A stretch of DNA of 61,765 nucleotides, taken from NCBI GenBank assembly GCA_051748565.1, contig JBNJHN010000005.1, positions 1-61,765 of the forward strand, in the 5' to 3' direction. Shown here one piece after another: positions 3,719 to 44,947 of this stretch. A model generated the notes under the pieces. It was not told the DNA's origin. It saw nothing but the letters and a program-made list of their open reading frames with translations, and made no database searches. A program made the translations under genes and the position numbers. Numbering within the stretch: the stretch's first letter is position 1; every line of letters starts with the position of its first letter. The DNA is from Bacillota bacterium. Lineage in GTDB: Bacteria; Bacillota; Dethiobacteria; DTU022.

Positions 3719-5167
3719 TTAATTCTCCCAGTAAGGTTTTGCCAGTCCTGATTTACTTAGAATGCGCCGCATTTCCAGCATTGCCGTATAAGTTGGCAGT
3801 ATAAAAAGCCTGCCTCCGGGCGGGGTTTGCTGAAGGGAGCTTTTAATTGCTTTGGTCGTATTCTCCTCGACGTTTATTTGTTCAGGATTGAAGCCGGCGT
3901 ATTTAAAGCGGACGGCCATATCCAGGGCACGCAAACCGGATACCGTCACGGTTGAAAACTTCTCTTTGATCGTGCAGAGCTGATCAAAATCGACATCCCA
4001 CAGCCAGGATACATCGGTGCCGTCGGCAATTTTATCATTTATCGCTACCAGTAAACTTATGCTATCTGTTTGTGCCAGGATGGTTCTCAATACCTCGTTT
4101 GCTCCGACCGGATTTTTTATCAGGGCCATGATCATTGTTTTACCTTCAATTTCGAAAAGTTCCATCCTTCCAAAAGAAGGAGCCGCTGATTCCAATGCAC
4201 TTACCACTGCCGTATCCGGAATTTCCAGAGCTTTTGCACAGGTAATGGCAGCTAAAACGTTATATAAATTATAGGTGCCCGGCAGGGGATTTTTCACTTC
4301 CAACTCAGACTCGGGTAAGCTTATTTTTAAGATTGTTTCGTCTTTGGGGTTTGAAATTTGCCCGACCAGTCTGACTTCGGGTTCAGGGCGCTTATAACTG
4401 CAGACCTGGCAGTGGTAATGTCCAAGATGGGCAAAGTAGATTTTTGTGTACACCAGTTTTTCATTGCAGGCCGGGCAGCTTTTAATATCCCGTCCGGTAT
4501 TTTGAAAAGTATCCTCAGGGAGATCCAGTGCCAGGCCATATGTCCATCTCTTTTTTCCGGTAATATTTTTGATACTGGCCAGGGAAGGATCGTCTGCGTT
4601 AATAACCTCGAAACCGTTGTCTGGTTGTAATTCCAGGCCCAACTTTATCGAGTCCCGAACGTGATCAACTTCTCCGTAACGGTCTAGTTGATCCCTGAAG
4701 ATGTTTGTAAGGACTATACCCCCGGGCCGAATCTCTTTTGTTAAACCGGGGAAAGCCCCTTCATCAACCTCCATGACGGCGAAATCTGCGTCTATTTTCC
4801 CTGTTAGCGAAGCGGCCCCGATCAAAGCTGAGGCTACCCCCCAGGACATATTTGAGCCCGATTGGTTGTGGATGCACCGATAGCCGGCGTTTTTCAGGAT
4901 GGAGCTTATTAGAGCGGAGGTTGTCGTTTTTCCATTGGTGCCGGTTACGATCAGGCTTTTTTCAGCTAATCTTTCTGTTAAGGCTGATGATAGCTGTGGC
5001 ACTATCTTCAGTGCTATCCGTCCGGGTAGAGTTGTCCCGCCTCGTCCCAGGATTCTGGATAAAACCATCAGTTTTTTCCCGGCCCAAATCCCACCGAGCA
5101 GTTTTAGTTTAAAAAGGCGGTTATCGAAACCGCCTGTTCCAGGATCATAACCCGGTTTTTTTCCCAC
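3719..5167 (-). CDS. murT: lipid II isoglutaminyl synthase Mur-ligase subunit
   Basis: GGTTLPG, VTGTNGKTTT, NIFRDQLDRYGE, CxxC..CxxC zinc finger, LIKNPVG, ADGTDVSWLWD, PTYTAML. Confidence 0.92.
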   Translation of the reverse strand: MGKKPGYDPGTGGFDNRLFKLKLLGGIWAGKKLMVLSRILGRGGTTLPGRIALKIVPQLSSALTERLAEKSLIVTGTNGKTTTSALISSILKNAGYRCIHNQSGSNMSWGVASALIGAASLTGKIDADFAVMEVDEGAFPGLTKEIRPGGIVLTNIFRDQLDRYGEVDHVRDSIKLGLELQPDNGFEVINADDPSLASIKNITGKKRWTYGLALDLPEDTFQNTGRDIKSCPACNEKLVYTKIYFAHLGHYHCQVCSYKRPEPEVRLVGQISNPKDETILKISLPESELEVKNPLPGTYNLYNVLAAITCAKALEIPDTAVVSALESAAPSFGRMELFEIEGKTMIMALIKNPVGANEVLRTILAQTDSISLLVAINDKIADGTDVSWLWDVDFDQLCTIKEKFSTVTVSGLRALDMAVRFKYAGFNPEQINVEENTTKAIKSSLQQTPPGGRLFILPTYTAMLEMRRILSKSGLAKPYWEN

Positions 5168-5190
5168 TTCTTACCTCTCAAGTCCGGCTT

Positions 5191-5655
5191 TTAGAAATTA
5201 GCCAAACACTGCACCACATCGGATCTTGTTATAATGCCAACCAGTTTTTCGTCATCGTCAATTACGGGAACCCGGTTTATATTTCGGCGATTCATCAGCT
5301 TTGCAACATCTGTAGCTGGAGTGTCCTCTTTAACGCTGTAAACTTTTTTGGTCATTACCTGGCTTATCAGGGTTCGATGCAGCATTTCAAAGCCTTCACG
5401 TATGCTAGCTATATCATCCATTTCAGTATACGGTGAAGTCCAAAACGAAAAATTGGATTGCGGAATTACACTCCTTTTCTGGGAGTAGCGAATAATATCG
5501 GTGTCGGAAATGATACCGATAACTTTACTCTCATCATCAACAACTATAAGACCGCTTATTTTGTGTTCGGCAAGGATGTCAAGAGCTTCCTTTACGGTTT
5601 GATCCTCTTTGACACTGACTGCAGGTGTACTCATAATTTCCTTTGCTGTAAACAT
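5191..5655 (-). CDS. tandem CBS-domain protein
   Basis: AKEIMS..VSV, VIGIISDTD, VMTKKVYSV, RVPVID..LVGIITRSD. Confidence 0.9.
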   Translation of the reverse strand: MFTAKEIMSTPAVSVKEDQTVKEALDILAEHKISGLIVVDDESKVIGIISDTDIIRYSQKRSVIPQSNFSFWTSPYTEMDDIASIREGFEMLHRTLISQVMTKKVYSVKEDTPATDVAKLMNRRNINRVPVIDDDEKLVGIITRSDVVQCLANF

Positions 5656-5784
5656 ATCATACCTCCCGGCTTAATAGAAACTTAAAAATGCTGGGACATG
5701 GTCTGCCATGCCCGCTGACTTATAAATAATTCTACAATAAGTTGTAGTTTCCTGCTCAGCTCCAGGCTATCAGGGAAATATGGT

Positions 5785-7626
5785 TTATTCAATATTTTGA
5801 AAAGCCATTGCATCGATAAAAATATCCTGAAAATCGGGACGGGTTGACAGTTCCAGGTGCTCAACCTTTTCGGGCAGGGCCAATGCTCTTTCCCGCATGG
5901 TTTTTGAGGCCAGGGCCATTCTCGATCCATCACCGGCAGCATTGCCGACAGCAATTATTTTTTCCGGTGGCAGCTGGGGCAGCAGCCCAATAGTCAGGGC
6001 ACTCTCTTTACGTACATAGTTGCCAAAGGCGCCTGCCAGTAATATTTGGTCAAGATCATCCGCACTTATTCCTGCTTCCTTAAGCAGTATCATCAGGCCG
6101 GCATATATTGCGCCTTTAGCCAGCTGCAGCTCGCGCAGGTCACCCTGGGTCAGAACAATGTCTTCTCCGGTGTCTGAATCTTCAGCCGGTACAAGAATAA
6201 ACTCAAAACCGCTTATAGTACGGCGTAATCTATTTATTAAATTAGCGGGTATTTTTTCAGGAGCTTCCTCAGGATTAACGAAGCGTCCGCTTGGCTCAAT
6301 TAAACCGGCATCAAGTAAAGCGGCGGCAGCGTCGATCAGACCCGAACCGCAGATTCCACAGGCAGCGGCATCGTCGATCATACTCAGCTTTATTTCACCA
6401 TCTAAGTAATCGCAAGCTTCAATTGCCCCGGAGGCTGCCCGCATTCCATGTTTAATCTGGGCTCCTTCAAAGGCGGGGCCCGCTGCTGTTGAACAGGCCA
6501 TCAGCTTTCCGTTGGCTGTCAAGACCAGTTCGCCGTTGGTTCCGATATCAATTGCGGCGCAATTATCTTTACGCTGGTCCATATTGGTGGCAAGGATAAC
6601 GCCTACAGTATCCGAGCCGACATATCCTGCAATGTTGGGCAGAAAAGTAACTCTTCCGGAAGGGCTTATCTTCAAGCCCAGTTCCGCTGCTTCTACTTCA
6701 AGGGCCCGGCTGTAAGCGGGAATAAAAGGAGCAGGGGCCAGGAAGGTAGGATCGATTCCCATAAAGAGGTGGCTCATGGTCGTGTTGCCGACAGCGACAA
6801 ACTCGTAAACACGATCCCGGGCTACCCTGGTTTGTTTAAGAAGGTCTTTAATAATCATGTTTGCCGCTTCAATTACCTTGTTCTGAAGTTGCTTTAAATT
6901 ATCCTTACCTTCTGAAGCATGAGTAATCCGCGAAATTACATCGGCCCCATAAGCATTCTGAGGATTGGTAGTTGCCGCCACGGCAATTACTGACGCGGTT
7001 TTTAAGTCAAGCAGCGAACCCATTATTGTGGTTGTCCCGATATCAAAAGCAACTCCGTAGATCTGGTCAGATGTATCTCCGGGTTCGATTGAGATAATTT
7101 TGCTGCCGGCAATAGCGGCAGTAATGGAATAGGTGTTATTTCTCAGCAGGGAAGGGAGACCGGAGAGTTCGCGAAGCTGGACAGTCAGATCGGGGCGTTT
7201 TAGGTGGTCAAGCAAACGTTCCAAATCAGCAGTCTGGTCTTTAACAGCAGGGCGGCTTAGCTTAACTGCTGCTTTTTCGACCATCGGCTCTGCTGCAAGC
7301 TCTTCCACACCTCCGGCTAAAGTTGTTTTACGCAGGTGGGCATCTTTTTGCACCGGTACTTCAACGACAAGGTCGTGGTCAACCGTTCTCTGGCAGGCCA
7401 GCGCCCAGCCATTTTCCAGTTCTGTTGATGAAAGGTGTTTGTTTTCAGCAGCTGTGGGGACGGTATTATCGCCCCCGGTAATTTTAACCCGGCATTTACC
7501 GCAGGTTCCTCTGCCAGCACAATCACCTTCAATATAGAGACCGGCCCTGTCAGCCGCTTTAAGTAAATTTGCTCCTGATTCAATGTCAATTTCTTTATTC
7601 TGGGGGACAAACTTGACTTTTGGCAT
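5785..7626 (-). CDS. RACo/AcsV-type reductive activator of corrinoid proteins (N-terminal [2Fe-2S] ferredoxin + ASKHA ATPase)
   Basis: CAGRGTCGKC...LACQ [2Fe-2S]; FDIGTTT, YGADVISRI, IDIGTNGE, TAAGPAFEG, GICGSG, LAGAFG, GNAAG. Confidence 0.9.
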   Translation of the reverse strand: MPKVKFVPQNKEIDIESGANLLKAADRAGLYIEGDCAGRGTCGKCRVKITGGDNTVPTAAENKHLSSTELENGWALACQRTVDHDLVVEVPVQKDAHLRKTTLAGGVEELAAEPMVEKAAVKLSRPAVKDQTADLERLLDHLKRPDLTVQLRELSGLPSLLRNNTYSITAAIAGSKIISIEPGDTSDQIYGVAFDIGTTTIMGSLLDLKTASVIAVAATTNPQNAYGADVISRITHASEGKDNLKQLQNKVIEAANMIIKDLLKQTRVARDRVYEFVAVGNTTMSHLFMGIDPTFLAPAPFIPAYSRALEVEAAELGLKISPSGRVTFLPNIAGYVGSDTVGVILATNMDQRKDNCAAIDIGTNGELVLTANGKLMACSTAAGPAFEGAQIKHGMRAASGAIEACDYLDGEIKLSMIDDAAACGICGSGLIDAAAALLDAGLIEPSGRFVNPEEAPEKIPANLINRLRRTISGFEFILVPAEDSDTGEDIVLTQGDLRELQLAKGAIYAGLMILLKEAGISADDLDQILLAGAFGNYVRKESALTIGLLPQLPPEKIIAVGNAAGDGSRMALASKTMRERALALPEKVEHLELSTRPDFQDIFIDAMAFQNIE

Positions 7627-7688: not shown

Positions 7689-7763
7689 TGGTACGCCCGC
7701 AGGGATTCGAACCCCGACTTCAGGCTCCGGAGGCCTGCGTGATATCCCTTTCACCACGGGCGC
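7689..7763 (-). tRNA. tRNA-Arg(CCG)
   Basis: Reverse complement folds as a cloverleaf: GCGCCCG acceptor, anticodon arm CAGGC-CTCCGGA-GCCTG, T-loop TTCGAAT, encoded CCA. Confidence 0.95.
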
Positions 7764-8038: not shown

Positions 8039-9334
8039 TTGGTTTTGCAGGCAGATTACTCATATAATTATTTGCCAAACGGAATCAGGCTTATTTTTAT
8101 GCCTACGGTTAAGTTTAAAACAATCTCAATGGGGGTTTTTTTACACCAGGAGCTTAAACCCGACATGGCGGCGTTAAATGCTCTGCTGCCGTCTGTTCTC
8201 GAGCAGGGGAGCCGTTTATATCCCGATTACCTGACCTTGCAAAGAGAGCTTGAAAAACTTTATGGAGCCGATATCGCCACAGATATAATAAAAAGCGGTG
8301 AAAGGCACATCCTTGCTTTTACCCTGGAAACAGCCCATGATAAATATTTAGGTGAAGACGGCAAGCTTTTGCAGAAGGGCATGTCTCTTCTTGGATCTGT
8401 GCTTGGAGATCCTCTTGTTATTGACGACGCTTTCAGACAGGATTATGTAAAACAGGAGAAGAGTCAGCTAATAAAAGACATTAAGGCTATGCTTAATGAC
8501 AAGGTTTCATACGCTATGGAGCGCTGTCTGGCCTTAATGTGTGCCGATGAAAATTTTGGTATCTATAAGCTTGGAAAGATAGAGGATTATGGAAAAATTG
8601 ATGCAGCAGGGCTTTACCGCCACTACAGCGATCTCTTAACCCACAGTCCAATCGATCTTTATGTTATCGGTGATCTTGATCAAAAGCAGGTTTTGGAAGC
8701 GGCGGCGGAGATTTTCAGTTTTTCTCGCAACAGGGAGTATTATCCCCTGCCTGAAACTGAGATAATGCGCCCGGTGGGAGAAGTTAAATATGTTGAGGAG
8801 GATATGACGGTCAACCAGGCCAAAATGGTTCTCGGTTTTCGCACTTATACCGGGTACAGGGATGTGCTGTACTGCCCACTTATGGTTTACAGCGGTGTTT
8901 TAGGCGGCTTCCCTCATTCCAAGCTTTTCATGAATGTCAGGGAAGAAGCAGGGCTGGCCTACTATATCAACTCCCGCCTTGAAAAGCATAAAGGATTGAT
9001 GGTTATTTCAGCAGGGATTAACTATGCTGATCTGCAGAAAGCCAGGGAGATAATTGATCGCCAGCTGGAAGATATGGCCTCGGGAGCGATTACTGACGCA
9101 GAGCTTGATAATACAAAACAGGCCTTGACTAATCAGCTGCTTTCCAGGCAGGATAGCCCCAGCCAGATGATTTCTTTTCACCTGGAAGGCTCAGTGGCTG
9201 GTAAAGCATATGGTGTTCAAGAACTGACTGATGGAATTGAAGCGGTTGACCGGAAAGATATAATGGCGGTGGCCGAACGGATAAAACTAGATACTGTATA
9301 CCTCCTGCGGCCCCGGGAAGGAGGCAGTAAATAA
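8039..9334 (+). CDS. ymfF: M16 family peptidase, non-catalytic subunit (YmfF-like)
   Basis: KFKTIS, LEKLYGA, GGFPHSKLFMNVREEAGLAYY; no HxxEH; paired with the next gene. Confidence 0.85.
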   Translation: MVLQADYSYNYLPNGIRLIFMPTVKFKTISMGVFLHQELKPDMAALNALLPSVLEQGSRLYPDYLTLQRELEKLYGADIATDIIKSGERHILAFTLETAHDKYLGEDGKLLQKGMSLLGSVLGDPLVIDDAFRQDYVKQEKSQLIKDIKAMLNDKVSYAMERCLALMCADENFGIYKLGKIEDYGKIDAAGLYRHYSDLLTHSPIDLYVIGDLDQKQVLEAAAEIFSFSRNREYYPLPETEIMRPVGEVKYVEEDMTVNQAKMVLGFRTYTGYRDVLYCPLMVYSGVLGGFPHSKLFMNVREEAGLAYYINSRLEKHKGLMVISAGINYADLQKAREIIDRQLEDMASGAITDAELDNTKQALTNQLLSRQDSPSQMISFHLEGSVAGKAYGVQELTDGIEAVDRKDIMAVAERIKLDTVYLLRPREGGSK

Positions 9335-9335
9335 T

Positions 9336-10643
9336 ATGCTGGACAACTGCAGATTAATCGAAAACCGTGAATTGCATGAGACCCTTTACCATTACCGTGT
9401 TCACCCGGGAATGGATGTTTATGTTTTGCCCAGGCCGGGATACCAGAAAAAATACGCAATTTTCTCGACCCGGTTTGGTTCAATTGACAACCAATTCCGT
9501 GTAGAGCCGGAGCAGGAAATAACAGTTTTGCCTGACGGGGTGGCGCACTTCCTTGAACATAAACTTTTTGAAGATGAGCGAGGCAATGTCTTTGATCGGT
9601 TTGCCTCTCTGGGTGCTTCTGCCAATGCCTTTACATCTTTTACACAGACATCATACCTTTTTTCGTGTATCGCTAATTTTGAGAAGAGCCTTCAGGAGCT
9701 GCTTGACTTTGTGCAGGAACCCTATTTTACTGAACAAACTGTGGGAAAAGAGCAGGGAATCATCGGCCAGGAGATCAAGATGTATGAAGACCACCCCCAC
9801 TGGCAGGTTTTCTTTAACCTTTTGGCCGGACTTTACCGGGAGCACCCGGTACGTAAAGATATTGCCGGTACAATTGATAGTATTGCCCAAATCTCTCCTG
9901 ATCTGCTCTATCGCTGTTACAATACTTTTTACCACCCAAGCAACATGGCTCTCTTCGTAACAGGCGATCTTAATCCGGACCAAATTGGGCAGCAGGTGGA
10001 GACTAACCTTGCGGCGCGTGATTATAAACCAATGGGAACTATTATACGTCACTACCCTCATGAACCTGCAGAAATTAAACAGGAGCGTACGGTTCAGGAA
10101 TTAGTTGTTTCCGAACCGATTATATTTCTCGGTTTTAAAGATATGGTTGTGGAGAAACTGCAGGAGAGAGAGTTGATGCGCCGTGAGATTCTAATGGAAC
10201 TTCTGCTTGATACCCTGTTTGGCACAAGTGAAGCGCTCTATAATGAGCTTTACAAAGACGATTTAATTGACGAAAACTTCGGTGCGGAATATACGGCTGA
10301 AACTAATTATGGCTATGTAATGATTGGCGGAGAAACGAAAGATCCCGATCGGCTCTATGAACGGATTATGGATGCCATCTCGAAAATAAAAAGAGAAGGA
10401 GTCAGTGCCGAGCAGTTTGAAAGGCACCGTCGCAAACTTTTAGGCGGTTATATCAGGCGCTTCAATTCGCTTGAATTTATTGCCAATAATTTTCTTGCTT
10501 ACCGTTTTCGGGGCACAGATCTTTTTCAATTGCCGTCTATCTTACATGAAGTCAGGCGAGAAGAGGCCCTGGCCCTGGTTGAAGAAAATTTGGATCCTGC
10601 CCGCCATGCTGTTTCGCTAATTATACCGCCGGAAGAAGAGTAA
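9336..10643 (+). CDS. ymfH: M16 family zinc peptidase (YmfH-like)
   Basis: PDGVAHFLEHKLFE (HxxEH), ANAFTSF, KEQGIIGQEIKMY, FYHPSNM. Confidence 0.88.
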   Translation: MLDNCRLIENRELHETLYHYRVHPGMDVYVLPRPGYQKKYAIFSTRFGSIDNQFRVEPEQEITVLPDGVAHFLEHKLFEDERGNVFDRFASLGASANAFTSFTQTSYLFSCIANFEKSLQELLDFVQEPYFTEQTVGKEQGIIGQEIKMYEDHPHWQVFFNLLAGLYREHPVRKDIAGTIDSIAQISPDLLYRCYNTFYHPSNMALFVTGDLNPDQIGQQVETNLAARDYKPMGTIIRHYPHEPAEIKQERTVQELVVSEPIIFLGFKDMVVEKLQERELMRREILMELLLDTLFGTSEALYNELYKDDLIDENFGAEYTAETNYGYVMIGGETKDPDRLYERIMDAISKIKREGVSAEQFERHRRKLLGGYIRRFNSLEFIANNFLAYRFRGTDLFQLPSILHEVRREEALALVEENLDPARHAVSLIIPPEEE

Positions 10644-10898: not shown

Positions 10899-11993
10899 TT
10901 GAAAACGACCTTAAGTGTAATTAAGGCGGACATTGGAAGTATTGCCGGCCATATAAAACCGAGCCGGGCTTTAATTGAATCTGTCAGAGAATGTATTTCC
11001 CGCCAGGTTGGCAAGCTTATAACCGACTTCTATATTGGCAGCACGGGTGACGATGTGGCCATTCTATTTTGTCATCGAAATGGGTTGGGCTATAGTGAAC
11101 TTCATCAGCTGGCCTGGGATGCATTTATGTGCGGAACGGAAAAAGCTAAAGAACAGGGTCTTTATGGAGCCGGGCAGGATCTGTTGGCTGATGCTTTTTC
11201 CGGAAATGTTAAGGGTCTCGGTCCGGCTGTAGCAGAAATGGAATTTGAGGAGCGTATAGCGGAACCTTTTTTGCTTTTTACAGCGGATAAAACTGATCCG
11301 GGCGCATATAACCTGCCTCTTTATTTAGGCTTTGCTGATCCGATGCATTGCTCGGGATTAATCCTTTCGCCCAAGATCGGACAGGGTTTTAAATATGTTA
11401 TTTTTGATGTTGCCTGCACCGAAGAAGATCGACTCATTGAACTCAACACCCCCGAGGATAGTTATGACCTTGCTGCGCTGTTAAGAGATAACGAGAGGTT
11501 TGTAGTTTCCGCCATTTATTCAAGGGCTACAGGCGCACAGGCGGCAGTCGCCAGCACTACCCGCCTGCATAATATTGCCGGAAAATATACCGGGAAAGAT
11601 GATCCGGTGCTCCTGGTTCGCTGCCAGGGAGATTTTCCGGCCACCGGTGAGATTCTGTCACCCTATTCTATCGGTCATTTTGTAGCCGGTTTTATGCGGG
11701 GCAGTCATACCGGACCGTTAATGCCTGTCAAGATGGGCAGTTCCATATCATATTTCGATGGTCCACCGGTGGTAAGCGCAGTTGGTTTTTGTGTTCACGA
11801 CGGCAAATTGACCGAGCCTGTAGACTGTTTTGATCATCCCTGCTGGGATTATATCAGGGATAAAGTATCACGCAAGGCTCTCGATATGAGAGAACAGGGC
11901 TTTTCAGGTCCGGCAATGCTCCATTACTCCGAGCTCGAATACGGTGGTATTGTAAGTATCATGGAAAAACTGGAGAAAAAGTTTTCCTGCTGA
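10899..11993 (+). CDS. fbp: bifunctional fructose-1,6-bisphosphate aldolase/phosphatase (archaeal-type class V FBPase)
   Basis: SVIKADIGSIAGH, GDD, GLYGAGQDLL, DAFSGNV, ADKTDPGA, RLHNIAGKYTGKDDP (Schiff-base Lys), MRGSH, ELEYG. Confidence 0.95.
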   Translation: MKTTLSVIKADIGSIAGHIKPSRALIESVRECISRQVGKLITDFYIGSTGDDVAILFCHRNGLGYSELHQLAWDAFMCGTEKAKEQGLYGAGQDLLADAFSGNVKGLGPAVAEMEFEERIAEPFLLFTADKTDPGAYNLPLYLGFADPMHCSGLILSPKIGQGFKYVIFDVACTEEDRLIELNTPEDSYDLAALLRDNERFVVSAIYSRATGAQAAVASTTRLHNIAGKYTGKDDPVLLVRCQGDFPATGEILSPYSIGHFVAGFMRGSHTGPLMPVKMGSSISYFDGPPVVSAVGFCVHDGKLTEPVDCFDHPCWDYIRDKVSRKALDMREQGFSGPAMLHYSELEYGGIVSIMEKLEKKFSC

Positions 11994-12076: not shown

Positions 12077-12105
12077 TTGATTTTTTTCAGTGGTCAGGTT
12101 AAAAT
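12077..12105 (+). promoter_or_regulatory. sigma-A promoter of the aminotransferase-reductase fusion
   Basis: TTGATT-N17-TAAAAT. Confidence 0.6.
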
Positions 12106-12115
12106 AGAGCTATTG

Positions 12116-12137
12116 ATGTGCACATTTATGTGCACAT
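12116..12137. promoter_or_regulatory. candidate repressor operator: two copies of the perfect palindrome ATGTGCACAT
   Basis: ATGTGCACAT at 12116-12125 and 12128-12137, between the -10 box and SD AGGAGG. Confidence 0.6.
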
Positions 12138-12156
12138 AGCAACAGGAGGCCTGACC

Positions 12157-14787
12157 ATGAACAATTTTACTAGGTACGTAAATCCACACCTGGGTGAGAT
12201 GCTTGAGAACATCAAACTTGATCAAAAGTATGTACGCGGTGAAGGTTGTCATCTATATGACGATCAGGGCAACCGTTATCTTGATTGCATCGCCGCTTAC
12301 GGCGCCCTTCCTTTTGGACATAATCCAGAACCAATCTGGAAAGCTATCAATGACTACCGCGATTCCGGAGAACCTGGTTTCATTCAGCCTTCTGCCCTTG
12401 ATGCGGCCGGGGAGCTGGCCCGCCGACTTATCGAAATTGCGCCGGAAGGTCTTGAATATGTAACTTTTACCAACAGCGGTGCCGAAGCAGTTGAAGCGGC
12501 GATCAAACTCTGTCGATCCGCCACCGGACGGCCGGGTATACTCGCAACCGAAAATAGTTTTCATGGAAAAACTTTAGGTGCTCTTTCGGCAACCGGCAAT
12601 TCTGCCTATCAGGCGCCCTTTAATGCGCCGGCCGGGGATTTTAATCATATTCCGTTTGGTAATGTTGAAGCCCTGAAAGTTGCACTAATTGAAAAGACCG
12701 GCTATTACGCTGCTTTTATCGTCGAACCAATCCAGGGAGAAGGCGGCATTGTAGAACCGGAGGATGGTTATCTTGCTGAGATAAAAAAGATTTGTAATGA
12801 ACATGGGGTACTGCTTGTATTTGATGAAGTTCAGACCGGCCTTGGTAGAACGGGTGCACTTTTTGCCTGCGAGAAGGAGGGTATTTCTCCCGATGTAATG
12901 GTCCTGGCTAAAGCCCTGGGCGGAGGAATCATGCCTGTCGGCGCCTGCCTGAGCACCGAAAAAGCATATACCGAAGATTTTGGGTTAAAACATTCATCCA
13001 CCTTTGCCGGGAATTCCCTTGCCTGCCGGGTTGGCCTGCAGGTGATCGAAGAGCTTACTGCCGGTAACAGGTCTTTACTTAAAGAAGTTCAGGCTAAAGG
13101 TAAGCTGCTTAAGGAAGGTCTTCTCAAACTAAAAGACAAATATCCCCGGCTGATCAAAAAGATCCGCGGCCGGGGATTGATGCTTGGTATCGAGTTCTAT
13201 ATGGACCGTGAACATTTTTCGGGAAGCCTGCTGGGTGTGATGGCTGAACAGGAACTGCTGACCCCGGCAATTTCTTCATATCTTCTGAATGTGGAAAAAA
13301 TCCGTGTGGCTCCTACCTTAAATGGAAATGCAGTTATCCGGATTGAGCCTCCCCTTGTAATAAGTGATGAACAATGTTTCCAGGCCCTGAACGGGCTTGA
13401 TGCAATGCTTGGGGTTCTCAGCGAAGGCAGTACAGCGCGTTTTCTTTCCTACCTGGTAAGATCCGAACCAGGAGGTAATTTTCCGCAGTTTGTACCTTAC
13501 CCGGCTGAAGCAATACGGCCGGGCAATACACCGGAAGAGGGCCGCTTTGCCTTTCTGATTCACGCTCTCGATCTGCAAAGTTATCATCAGTTTGACAATA
13601 GTCTGCTTGCCTTCAGCGAAGAAGAGTTGGCTGAATTAACCGGCAGGTTTGGTGATATGATAGAACCGTTTGTCGCCGGTCGAACCAGGATAAATTCAGC
13701 TGCAGGTAAAACTGCATACGGTGAATTTATCGGCCTGCCCCGCACTACGGAAGAATTTTTGCAAATGCCGCGCAGCCAGGCCTTAAGTGAACTTAAATCA
13801 GCAGTGGCCATCGCCCGGGAACGCGGAGCCAAAATAGTTGGTCTCGGTGCTTTCACCGCTGTAGCTTCTATGGGCGGGCTTTATCTGAAAAATGAGGGAG
13901 TGCCAATTACAACCGGTAACAGTTATACCGTGGTTTCAGCAGTTGATGCCGTTAATACCGCTACCGACAGGCTGTATATTGACCGATCAGAGATTACGGC
14001 AGCTATCGTCGGAGCAGCCGGATCAATCGGCAGAGGCATTTCGTTGCTGCTGTCCGAAACCGTTCCCCGCCTGATCCTGATCGGCAACCCGAATAATCAA
14101 ACCTCCAGTGACAGACTTCAGCTTGTAGCAGCCGAAATTTACCGTTATCAATCTGCATTGCTGCGGCAGGGCCGAACCCTGAAACCTGGCAGCATGGGCC
14201 ACCTGTTATCCGATTGCCCCGAATTGCCCGGCCCTGAAGCCCCGATGGATGCTTTTGAAAATTTTGTCGAAGGGGAAGGGAAGCGCAGGGGCTTGATCGA
14301 GTTTTCTACTGATATTGATGCCGTCCTGGCCAGGGCCGATGTTGTGATCAGCGCAACAAGTGCAACAGAAAAAGTTATTCATGCCGGTAACCTGAAGACA
14401 GGCGCGATCGTCTGCGATATATCCCGGCCTGCCAATGTGAGCGAAGAAGTCGATCAGGCCCGTCCCGATGTTCTGGTTATTGATGGTGGGGTTGTCGAAG
14501 TGCCGGGCCAACCCTCGCTCGGCTGGGACTTCGGTTTTGAAAAAGGTCTGGCCTATGCCTGTATGGCCGAAACGATGATGCTGGCCCTTGAACAGCGCTA
14601 CAAACATTACAGTTTAGGTTCTTCGGGAGTCAACCTCGAAACAATTTTGCAGACCAGATACTGGGCAGTCGAGCATGGTTTTAAGCTGGCCAACTTCCGC
14701 AGTTTCAACCGCCCGCTAAGCGAAGAAAGCTGGCACAGACTGCTTAAAACCCGCAGCGAACTGGCCGCGGCTTATAAACTGTGTTAA
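12157..14787 (+). CDS. class III PLP aminotransferase fused to a C-terminal acyl-ACP reductase-like NAD(P)-binding domain
   Basis: N-term YLDCIAAYGALPFGH, NSGAEAVEAA, FHGKT, EPIQGEGG, DEVQTGLGRTG, LAKALGGG; C-term FAFLIH, GAKIVGLGAFT, TTGNSYT, VGAAGSIG, CDISRP, IDGG, AYACMAETM. Start moved to ATG 12157 (SD AGGAGG). Confidence 0.85.
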   Translation: MNNFTRYVNPHLGEMLENIKLDQKYVRGEGCHLYDDQGNRYLDCIAAYGALPFGHNPEPIWKAINDYRDSGEPGFIQPSALDAAGELARRLIEIAPEGLEYVTFTNSGAEAVEAAIKLCRSATGRPGILATENSFHGKTLGALSATGNSAYQAPFNAPAGDFNHIPFGNVEALKVALIEKTGYYAAFIVEPIQGEGGIVEPEDGYLAEIKKICNEHGVLLVFDEVQTGLGRTGALFACEKEGISPDVMVLAKALGGGIMPVGACLSTEKAYTEDFGLKHSSTFAGNSLACRVGLQVIEELTAGNRSLLKEVQAKGKLLKEGLLKLKDKYPRLIKKIRGRGLMLGIEFYMDREHFSGSLLGVMAEQELLTPAISSYLLNVEKIRVAPTLNGNAVIRIEPPLVISDEQCFQALNGLDAMLGVLSEGSTARFLSYLVRSEPGGNFPQFVPYPAEAIRPGNTPEEGRFAFLIHALDLQSYHQFDNSLLAFSEEELAELTGRFGDMIEPFVAGRTRINSAAGKTAYGEFIGLPRTTEEFLQMPRSQALSELKSAVAIARERGAKIVGLGAFTAVASMGGLYLKNEGVPITTGNSYTVVSAVDAVNTATDRLYIDRSEITAAIVGAAGSIGRGISLLLSETVPRLILIGNPNNQTSSDRLQLVAAEIYRYQSALLRQGRTLKPGSMGHLLSDCPELPGPEAPMDAFENFVEGEGKRRGLIEFSTDIDAVLARADVVISATSATEKVIHAGNLKTGAIVCDISRPANVSEEVDQARPDVLVIDGGVVEVPGQPSLGWDFGFEKGLAYACMAETMMLALEQRYKHYSLGSSGVNLETILQTRYWAVEHGFKLANFRSFNRPLSEESWHRLLKTRSELAAAYKLC

Positions 14788-16981: not shown

Positions 16982-17605
16982 TTATCTTATTTCAGGGTTG
17001 AAAAAACCTTGGAAAAGCATGTCCATAATTGTATTGGTAATATGTTCCAGGTTATCCTCATGCTCGTTTACAACTTCCCAGATGAATCGATCTACCAGGA
17101 GTATATATGCCTTGGCGCCAACCTGGATATCAAAATCTTTTGCCAGCCCTTTTTCCTGGGAATAGGCAAAGGAGCGAGCTGAGCTTTTTATAAACTGATC
17201 AATGATATTTTGCCAGTGAGCGGCAATCGATGGTGATTGTCCGAGTGCCTCCTGGTATACTTTCATAATCGGGCGGTGCTGTTCGGATAAACGGAATGAA
17301 GTTAATACCAGTTCATAATAGGCATTACGTGTTTCTTCAAGGGTTTCCGGGGCAAAAGGGACTTCCAGCAGGTTGTAGAATTCGTCAAGCACATTGTCAA
17401 CGACCTTGTTCAGGATATCATCTTTACCTTTGAAATGGCTGTATACAGTGCCGTAACCAACTTTAGCCTGTTGGCTGATTTTAGCAATGGTTGTTTTTGC
17501 GTATCCTTCACTGAGAAATACTTCCAATGCAGTGTCCAGTATTAATTTGCGTGTAATTCTGCTGCGCAGGTAGCGACGTGGTCTCCTTGAGGTATTATTT
17601 TCCAC
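16982..17605 (-). CDS. TetR/AcrR family transcriptional regulator
   Basis: TRKLILDTALEVFLSEGYAKTTIAKISQQAKVGYGTVYSHFKGKDDI HTH; start moved to GTG 17605 (SD AAGGAGG). Confidence 0.92.
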   Translation of the reverse strand: MENNTSRRPRRYLRSRITRKLILDTALEVFLSEGYAKTTIAKISQQAKVGYGTVYSHFKGKDDILNKVVDNVLDEFYNLLEVPFAPETLEETRNAYYELVLTSFRLSEQHRPIMKVYQEALGQSPSIAAHWQNIIDQFIKSSARSFAYSQEKGLAKDFDIQVGAKAYILLVDRFIWEVVNEHEDNLEHITNTIMDMLFQGFFNPEIR

Positions 17606-17658
17606 AGGTAAAACGACCTCCTTAAACATTTTTTGAAAAACCATCAAACCGTGGCGAC

Positions 17659-44697: not shown

Positions 44698-44875
44698 TGT
44701 AGCCCTGCGGTGTTCGTGACAGCCGATAAAGTTTTGAGCTAACACTTTTACATCGGGAACCTGGACTTCGGGTGCAGCGCAGCAGCCTTTGTAAAGAGGA
44801 CCTGCAAAACAGCTGAGAGGGTACCCACCTTTCGGGGGAACAGTTCAAAACGACGGACCACGGCACGGCGGGGTT
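44698..44875 (+). ncRNA. ssrS: 6S RNA
   Basis: Typical position after aspS; termini pair (CCCTGCGGTGTTCGT with ACGGACCACGGCACGGCGGGG), internal TTTTGAGCT/AGTTCAAAA pairing, GGGAACC/GGTACCC motifs, then U-tract; ends approximate. Confidence 0.85.
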
Positions 44876-44947
44876 TTTTATTGTTTTTTAGCGTGCTATA
44901 ATAAAAGTTGTTTGCCTGGAATTGCCCTGATTTGATGCAACAGGGAG

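Follow-up and report, generated by a model that had tools for sequence, protein, structure and literature searches.

We found a predicted aminotransferase–thioester reductase fusion gene (hereafter, the fusion) in a 61,765-nucleotide stretch of contig JBNJHN010000005.1 from a Bacillota bacterium (GenBank assembly GCA_051748565.1; GTDB lineage Dethiobacteria, DTU022). This whole stretch is called the window below. The fusion is best read as a TamH-type bifunctional enzyme that would convert an acyl thioester into an aldehyde and then into a primary amine. It would be expressed from its own promoter and operator, and it would belong to the regulon of a 179-aa helix-turn-helix (HTH) regulator encoded on another contig. 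Judging from sequence comparison, we give this reading a probability of about 0.65. The enzyme design is known from pigment pathways, and the version described here is a repressor-controlled one in anaerobic Firmicutes. New here are the operator, the link to the regulator across contigs, the fold of a partner protein (p309) that resembles acyl-acyl carrier protein (ACP) reductase (AAR), and a picture of displacement at the home locus of the regulon. The coordinates of all features are collected in Table 1.

The longest open reading frame (ORF) for the fusion runs from 12118 to 14787 on the forward strand and opens at GTG 12118. We took ATG 12157 as the start codon, because AGGAGG precedes it and because the resulting length matches those of the homologues (867–914 aa in 118 of the 120 fusion homologues listed). 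Full-length homologues with 58–96% identity are found in many anaerobic Bacillota, with source names including Dethiobacter, Halanaerobiales, Thermohalobacter and Oxobacter, and databases list them as ‘putrescine aminotransferase’ or ‘aminotransferase class III-fold’. The N-terminal part is a class III pyridoxal phosphate (PLP) aminotransferase. The C-terminal 436 aa have no good Pfam family, a short Shikimate_DH match being the sole hit. They match the domain at PigE's N-terminus (PDB 4ppm, E 1.2e-25) and the cyanobacterial AAR (PDB 6jzq, E 4.4e-15), and PigE is also the best overall match of the whole fusion among solved structures (E 1.3e-115). Cys802 in the ACMAETM sequence aligns with the catalytic cysteine of both enzymes (ACFAEAM in AAR and GCMAETI in PigE). 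D223, E224, G619, G622, G625 and C802 do not vary in a set of 31 family members that reaches down to 40% identity. We conclude that the gene is intact and has been selected for both activities.

A first-pass annotation, made by a model from the DNA sequence alone, had already paired a class III transaminase with an AAR-like reductase, placed a catalytic cysteine in an ACxAExM context and likened the protein to TamH. All three proposals held up: the PF00202 match and the 6jzq and 4ppm alignments bear out the pairing, the cysteine is the invariant C802, and the domain order, the GxxGxxG motif and the cysteine are common to the fusion and TamH. The motifs it quoted are present in the aminotransferase (DEVQTG 223–228 and LAKALGGG 250–257) and in the reductase (FAFLIH 464–469, GAKIVGLGAFT 557–567, TTGNSYT 585–591, GAAGSIG 619–625 and AYACMAETM 799–807). 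In the profile and structure comparison that it had suggested for the C-terminal domain, AAR and PigE match much better in sequence than glutamyl-tRNA reductase does.

The proposed chemistry follows that of the homologous enzymes. The acyl group would pass from a thioester, carried by ACP or coenzyme A (CoA), to Cys802 of the AAR-family domain, and the Cys802-bound acyl group would be reduced with NAD(P)H to the aldehyde. The class III aminotransferase, with PLP on Lys252 and probably with L-glutamate as the donor, would turn the aldehyde into a primary amine, and the HTH protein would repress the fusion gene. The route from thioester through aldehyde to amine is the best-supported chemistry, because the transaminase–thioester reductase (TA–TR) pair is naturally fused to adenylation and carrier-protein domains. 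The architectures among 28 proteins scanned were adenylation–carrier–TA–TR, TA–TR–AMP ligase, ACP–TA–TR, C–A–T–TA–TR and KS–TA–TR, and AMP-binding, PP-binding, TA and TR domains are joined in a single chain in L064, P0124, P0130 and P0134. The L064 protein, from a Chloroflexota-labelled metagenome-assembled genome, is a 1538-aa adenylation–carrier–TA–TR protein whose TA–TR part is 52% identical to the fusion; by its domain content it looks like a complete acid-to-amine machine. The same route had been proposed in the first-pass annotation, whose ‘fatty’ substrate is, however, unsupported.

The enzyme type has already been described in published work. TamH is described as making a C12 amine from TamA-bound acyl-ACP with L-glutamate and as refusing acyl-CoA (PMC9594044). 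PigE is described as reducing the thioester and transaminating the aldehyde in lysates and not when purified (PMC8341465). A 2024 paper presents four cloned TA–AAR fusions, three of them from thermophilic Firmicutes, with the catalytic cysteine mapped by structure comparison; TfFusion, TmFusion and TsFusion transaminate aldehydes with L-glutamate (PMC10829540).

A promoter and a tandem TGTGCACA operator appear to belong to the fusion itself. A TTGAT..-N17-TAAAAT-like pair is found at the same place upstream of the fusion in close relatives. In the window, as in the whole 2.06-Mb genome, the palindrome ATGTGCACAT that forms the putative operator occurs just twice, and the reversed control has no copy. 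Of 68 loci examined, 42 have GTGCAC in the 180 nt upstream of the fusion (31 of the 31 with at least 73% identity and 11 of the 37 others), a count over related loci that does not amount to a statistical test. The distant loci bearing it include Dethiobacter-, Halanaerobiales- and Limnochordales-labelled records. The intergenic sequence has diverged around the operator boxes, and the boxes are kept. These predicted sites suggest that the fusion is under its own control.

The next-best operator site in the genome has one mismatch and lies on another contig (C58), just upstream of the gene for the 179-aa protein. This regulator has a weak HTH signature and otherwise belongs to no Pfam or NCBIfam family. 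Its predicted model (pLDDT 79.7) combines an HTH with a small Rossmann-like domain, for which Foldseek gave just weak Rex-like matches (E 2e-3, TM about 0.3) and a wide structure search gave generic Rossmann-like ones (best Z 7.9). In 16 Peptococcaceae-type loci, the gene immediately upstream of the fusion encodes a regulator homologue with 38–44% identity, and partial copies are found at the contig starts of L060 and L075. In 15 of 18 loci, the regulator gene carries operator-like boxes between its ribosome-binding site and a −10-like box. A permissive pattern, used without a shuffle control, shows such boxes before the regulator in 11 of 12 further loci as well. Taken with the operator before the fusion, these boxes point to the 179-aa protein as an autoregulated repressor whose regulon would include the fusion.

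We surveyed a sample of 301 genomes of the phylum, with E≤1e-20 for the reductase, E≤1e-100 for fusion-type matches and E≤1e-10 for the regulator. The reductase domain is found in 195 of the 301 genomes; 25 have fusion-type matches, and the rest have mostly stand-alone genes of ~360–400 aa. A single reductase match was found in 24 of the 25 fusion genomes. The regulator is likewise found in 195 of the 301 genomes, and in 19 of the 25 with the fusion.

A 309-aa ORF (p309) begins before the regulator gene has ended, and the two genes are predicted to be co-transcribed. We found no Pfam or NCBIfam family for p309, and its sequence search against solved structures gave only chance-level GroEL matches. 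Among the p309 homologue candidates scored, 7991 of 8000 reach E≤0.001. Where they are named at all, they are called ‘quinate 5-dehydrogenase’, which is likewise the only name in the protein atlas clusters. The predicted p309 structure (pLDDT 86.6) has AAR as its best solved match (Z 14.1 over 250 residues, root-mean-square deviation 4.5, 14% identity). Its comparison with the carmabin terminal amidation domain (TAD) gave Z 13.0, the next fold being that of glutamate dehydrogenases (Z ~10), and Foldseek agrees. In an alignment made by eye, SAMDRLG of p309 corresponds to GAxGSIG of the reductase, and RSFGTN to ACMAET. Since the AAR-like fold is combined with an apparent loss of the cysteine and the glycine motif, as these motifs read by eye, the p309 protein may be a catalytically dead AAR paralogue. 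p309 is present in 5 of 5 further fusion-bearing genomes searched, and the regulator–p309–fusion order is found in L062 and L058 and also in G096, G289 and G158. In G301 and G303, p309 is followed by an SCP2-like 118-aa ORF and then by an APC permease gene, and in G302 the permease gene is downstream of p309. This neighbourhood is a faint hint at a hydrophobic ligand, and it comes from related genomes only.

A home locus of the regulon emerges from the twelve genomes mapped. The order dusB–regulator–p309–reductase (~365 aa)–greA–lysS is found in G142, G079, G002 and G211, and G011 shows this order too, as far as the fetched stretch reaches. p309 is missing from the otherwise identical order in G052 and G134. 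In G096 and G289, the fusion stands in the place of the reductase (dusB–regulator–p309–fusion–greA–lysS). The source genome of the window has dusB–regulator–p309–greA–lysS, with the fusion elsewhere, together with its operator; G305 has the same layout, and so has G268 as far as its contig reaches. Because the reductase domain of the fusion belongs to another clade than the stand-alone reductases, the TA-linked reductase seems to have displaced the stand-alone one in an existing regulon. The simplest reading of the gene orders is that the displacing fusion later moved away in some lineages and kept its operator. Upstream of dusB, a gene for a 364-aa DUF2229/HGD-D-like protein is conserved with 70–81% identity in G178 and G142. 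The stand-alone reductase gene is often located ~2.4–3 kb from a contig end (for example, G002:C105, G032:C137 and G214:C102), as would be expected if an rRNA operon comes after greA–lysS and interrupts the assemblies. In G178, which belongs to the window's own family, a very divergent reductase-like gene (29% identity) comes after p309, and the fusion is elsewhere (L106).

A wider reading of these loci is possible, and we offer it as a tentative one. The small HTH repressor with its Rossmann-like sensor domain, the tandem operator, the dead AAR-fold p309 and the AAR-like reductase may make up an undescribed regulon that is widely conserved in anaerobic Bacillota, with the fusion as one output that makes or removes an aldehyde or amine of primary metabolism. 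p309 might then be a non-catalytic partner or a substrate carrier of the reductase, and in several lineages a TA-linked reductase of the natural-product clade might have replaced the stand-alone one, adding amination. Among the papers listed by a limited literature search, none describes the regulator–p309–reductase module or the TGTGCACA operator, which is insufficient to claim that they are unpublished.

The first-pass annotation had noted an insertion of about 50 aa in the Rossmann domain, and it is absent from AAR, PigE and the ~360-aa stand-alone reductases. Residues 216–276 of the C-terminal part cover just residues 198–209 of PigE and of AAR. The segment is 45–58 residues long in most transaminase-linked reductases, in contrast to ~10 residues in the dusB-locus stand-alone reductases. 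The reductase domain family has 2812 representatives at E≤0.001. Domains for the alignment and tree were taken from 150 library representatives (P0123–P0272), 11 full-length fusion homologues and 23 ORFs cut from loci; the 163 reductase domains that cover at least 85% of the profile were used, and shorter fragments were dropped. One clade with a support of 0.998 (FastTree local support, midpoint root) unites every one of the 112 sequences that have 30 or more extra residues, along with 10 that have fewer. It takes in 44 of the 46 plain TA–TR proteins and all 23 members of the ~950-aa class, and the eight dusB-locus reductases lie outside it. The insertion is thus not peculiar to the fusion protein and appears on this tree to be a mark of the whole transaminase-coupled reductase clade. 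TamH probably has it too, because the spacing from the glycine motif to the cysteine is 180 in TamH (G707, C887) and 183 in the fusion (G619, C802), against 132 in AAR. We guess that the insertion contacts the transaminase domain.

Several points weigh against the TamH-type reading and its regulon. The assays described in PMC10829540 covered transamination alone, and the reductase chemistry is assigned by homology. Purified PigE and TamH are described as leaving free thioesters or acyl-CoA unreduced (PMC8341465 and PMC9594044); for this reason, the acyl donor may be a specific carrier, and a carrier protein is not encoded beside the fusion gene. The fusion scores below every curated NCBIfam cut-off (PigE 562 bits against 850, AAR 78.5 bits against 449.7) and is consequently not filed as PigE, AAR or putrescine aminotransferase. 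The direction of the reaction in vivo could be the reverse. In hhalign, p309 and the reductase family gave a probability of 0.2 and no sequence-level homology, and the role suggested for p309 as a dead partner of the reductase comes from motif reading and gene order. Finally, the regulator was not found at E≤1e-10 in 6 of the 25 fusion genomes; in family f21, all 4 genomes have the fusion and none of them has the regulator.

This reverse direction is a serious rival, to which we give a low probability. In a catabolic or detoxifying route, a primary amine, such as a diamine or an alkylamine, would become an aldehyde and then, through a Cys802 thiohemiacetal, an acyl thioester on CoA or ACP, and the repressor would make the enzyme substrate-inducible. 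Thermodynamics count in favour of such a route, because NAD(P)H has to reduce a thioester uphill. The closest single-domain aminotransferase models are those of putrescine aminotransferases, which are catabolic (331.6 bits; PDB 4uox, E 1.2e-84), and dedicated repressor control is typical of inducible pathways. The aldehyde dehydrogenase gene found 20 nt after the fusion in L076, and the APC-family permease gene near p309 (two genes after it in G301 and G303, downstream in G302), would also suit catabolism. However, the module lies among housekeeping and not catabolic genes, and the adenylation and carrier domains fused to close relatives make sense only biosynthetically. Every AAR-family enzyme and TA–TR fusion that has been characterised works reductively, as far as the cited accounts describe them. 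These points favour the TamH-type reading over the catabolic one.

The carrier-protein fusions also bear on the possibility that the C-terminal domain acts as a carmabin-type TAD, or on aminoacyl-tRNA, instead of on acyl-ACP or acyl-CoA, since they point to phosphopantetheine thioesters. The TAD is described as AAR-like, with the same invariant cysteine and with its chemistry open (bioRxiv 10.1101/2024.10.28.620694). Weak matches of the fusion to glutamyl-tRNA reductase (TIGR01035, E 3e-6) and the home locus of the regulon between dusB and lysS might suggest a link with tRNA. This alternative is nevertheless very unlikely, as glutamyl-tRNA reductase is much less similar in sequence than AAR and PigE are, and the fused aminotransferase requires an aldehyde, which fits reduction and not amidation.

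The genes next to the fusion suggest another alternative. In the window, a pair of M16-peptidase-like genes lies upstream of the fusion, and their NCBIfam name is ‘EF-P 5-aminopentanol modification-associated’. proS follows after 40 nt (its ORF starts from GTG 14828), as had been read in the first-pass annotation. The Bacillus 5-aminopentanol pathway is described as needing an aminotransferase (PMC5885033). The fusion could thus be imagined to modify EF-P, or another protein, and to replace steps of this pathway. We scanned species genomes, which yielded 204 relatives, and kept 76 distinct loci. In 30 of the 76, ymfH occurs together with the fusion, and in 29 the fusion is followed by proS; almost all such loci show at least 73% identity to the fusion, and two of the ymfH-linked ones show 60%. 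YmfI is not found over its cut-off in the source genome (best 209.6 bits against 238). Against EF-P modification, the 81 flanking ORFs scanned in 15 loci of more distant relationship belong to housekeeping or transport and are unrelated. The proS/ymf linkage is local, since it is confined mostly to close relatives and distant loci have unrelated neighbours. A glycolytic gene, for fructose-1,6-bisphosphate aldolase/phosphatase, lies between ymfH and the fusion in the window; this arrangement is found only in the window, L012 and L019, and in the other close relatives the fusion directly follows ymfH. The fusion lies between p309 and greA in G096 and G289, and YmfI over its cut-off coexists with it in G096, G289 and G062. 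The YmfI survey showed no anti-correlation with the fusion, and the regulon partners have no tie to EF-P. With the predicted promoter and operator of its own, the fusion is highly improbable as an EF-P modification enzyme.

It is highly doubtful that the fusion is an ordinary putrescine or acetylornithine aminotransferase with an inert or structural C-terminal domain, as the public names of the homologues and the activity described for truncated transaminase-only forms of related fusions (PMC10829540) might suggest: Cys802 and the three motif glycines are invariant in the 31 members, the score stays below the cut-off for each of the 25 models listed (PRK11522 331.6 bits against 612, TIGR00707 309.5 against 410.05), and the source genome already has at least seven other class III aminotransferase loci.

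No polyketide synthase (PKS), nonribosomal peptide synthetase (NRPS) or other such biosynthetic genes were found in the 22 neighbouring ORFs scanned, and no PKS or NRPS partner was found in the 81 flanking ORFs of the 15 distant loci, except for the fused domains of L064 itself. The housekeeping setting reported in the first-pass annotation is therefore confirmed. Its picture of a stand-alone gene is right in that no biosynthetic cluster surrounds the fusion, but the gene would belong to a regulon whose HTH regulator is encoded on another contig, beside an AAR-like partner. In Sporotomaculum syntrophicum (L076), an aldehyde dehydrogenase gene follows the fusion, and an S-adenosylmethionine decarboxylase gene follows it in L062; a possible hint from these genes is one at aldehyde or polyamine metabolism. 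A TetR-family regulator gene keeps its place after proS and MTHFS in close relatives, and we found no link between it and the operator of the fusion. The Rfam scan of the window gave no T-box or riboswitch near the fusion, and a 6S RNA and one tRNA were the sole matches at gathering score. The terminator scan gave 13 sites against a shuffle mean of 12.0, which is no excess.

Table 1. Features of the fusion gene, its surroundings and related loci (positions refer to the window unless a contig or locus is named)
Feature	Position	Strand	Remarks
Aminotransferase–thioester reductase fusion, coding sequence	12157..14787	+	stop included; 876 aa, intact ORF
Predicted promoter TTGATT-17-TAAAAT	12077..12105	+	consensus scan, 9/12 matches
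Putative operator, palindrome ATGTGCACAT x2	12116..12137	.	spaced 12 bp; between −10 box and ribosome-binding site
Ribosome-binding site AGGAGG	12144-12149	+	7 nt before ATG 12157
Class III PLP aminotransferase domain	12226..13407	+	aa 24-417; Pfam PF00202 (Aminotran_3), E 4.5e-95
PLP lysine Lys252	12910-12912	+	kept in at least 90% of 31 family members
AAR-family (acyl-ACP reductase) thioester reductase domain	13543..14736	+	aa ~463-860; TIGR04058, E 5.8e-22
GxxGxxG nucleotide motif	14011-14031	+	aa 619-625 (G619, G622, G625)
Insertion in Rossmann domain, ~55 residues	14125..14289	+	aa 657-711; no counterpart in AAR, PigE or stand-alone reductases
Cys802	14560-14562	+	in ACMAETM
tRNA gene	7692-7763	-	Rfam
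YfmF_fam/YfmH_fam pair (M16-peptidase-like)	8039-10643	+	E 1.1e-131 / E 6.4e-163; upstream of the fusion
Fructose-1,6-bisphosphate aldolase/phosphatase gene	10899-11993	+	between ymfH and the fusion
TetR-family regulator	16982-17647	-	weak FadR (Bacillus) likeness, 60.6 bits against a cut-off of 200
6S RNA	44699-44878	+	Rfam, 84.7 bits
DUF2229/HGD-D-like protein, 364 aa (CoA-enzyme-activase-related)	G000 contig C58 (L095) 5016-6110	-	upstream of dusB
SCP2-like (lipid-binding fold) ORF after p309, 118 aa	L115 4244-4600; L118 3608-3964	-	Peptococcaceae-type genomes; with APC-family permease
Adenylation–carrier–TA–TR protein, 1538 aa	L064 5874-10490	+	
Divergent reductase-like gene after p309	L106 212-976	-	
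Aldehyde dehydrogenase gene	L076 10624-12096	+	
S-adenosylmethionine decarboxylase gene	L062 7190-7669	+	

One-protein acid-to-amine enzymes are wanted in biocatalysis, and this large clade from anaerobes adds candidates. The reductase and the regulator, each in 195 of the 301 sampled genomes, are often together in a core housekeeping locus, and the operator and regulator offer an experimental handle that could identify the substrate. A product that turned out to be a signalling aldehyde or an amine of the envelope would add something new to Firmicute physiology, whereas a minor role in salvage or detoxification would be of modest interest.

Among the known systems, PtTamH of the tambjamine YP1 pathway of Pseudoalteromonas tunicata (PMC9594044) has the same order of an N-terminal class III transaminase and a C-terminal AAR-family reductase, a likeness drawn from its published description and not from a sequence alignment. 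PtTamH is described as a 941-aa protein encoded in a 19-gene pigment cluster and served by the adenylation–ACP protein TamA, whereas the fusion has no such cluster or carrier nearby. TfFusion of Thermincola ferriacetica, with C824 as its cysteine, and TmFusion and TsFusion of two Thermaerobacter species are described as TA–AAR fusions accepting aliphatic and aromatic aldehydes with L-glutamate (PMC10829540). They are probably the nearest tested relatives. PigE of the prodigiosin MAP pathway in Serratia (4ppm; NF053554; PMC8341465) has the same two domains and the same cysteine (Cys296), but in reversed domain order, without the ~50-residue insertion and in a pigment cluster. The cyanobacterial AAR (TIGR04058; 6jzq/6jzu) shares its fold and catalytic cysteine with the C-terminal domain of the fusion, to which a ping-pong acyl-enzyme mechanism would then apply. 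It differs in being a stand-alone protein of 340 aa that lacks the insertion and passes its aldehyde to a deformylating oxygenase, and its similarity to the fusion is weak (78.5 bits). The dusB-locus stand-alone reductases (‘shikimate dehydrogenase’ or COG5322) have the regulator, the operator and p309 in common with the fusion, and share its slot in G096 and G289. They are 32–36% identical to the reductase domain of the fusion, and differ from it in lacking both the aminotransferase and the insertion and in forming a separate clade.

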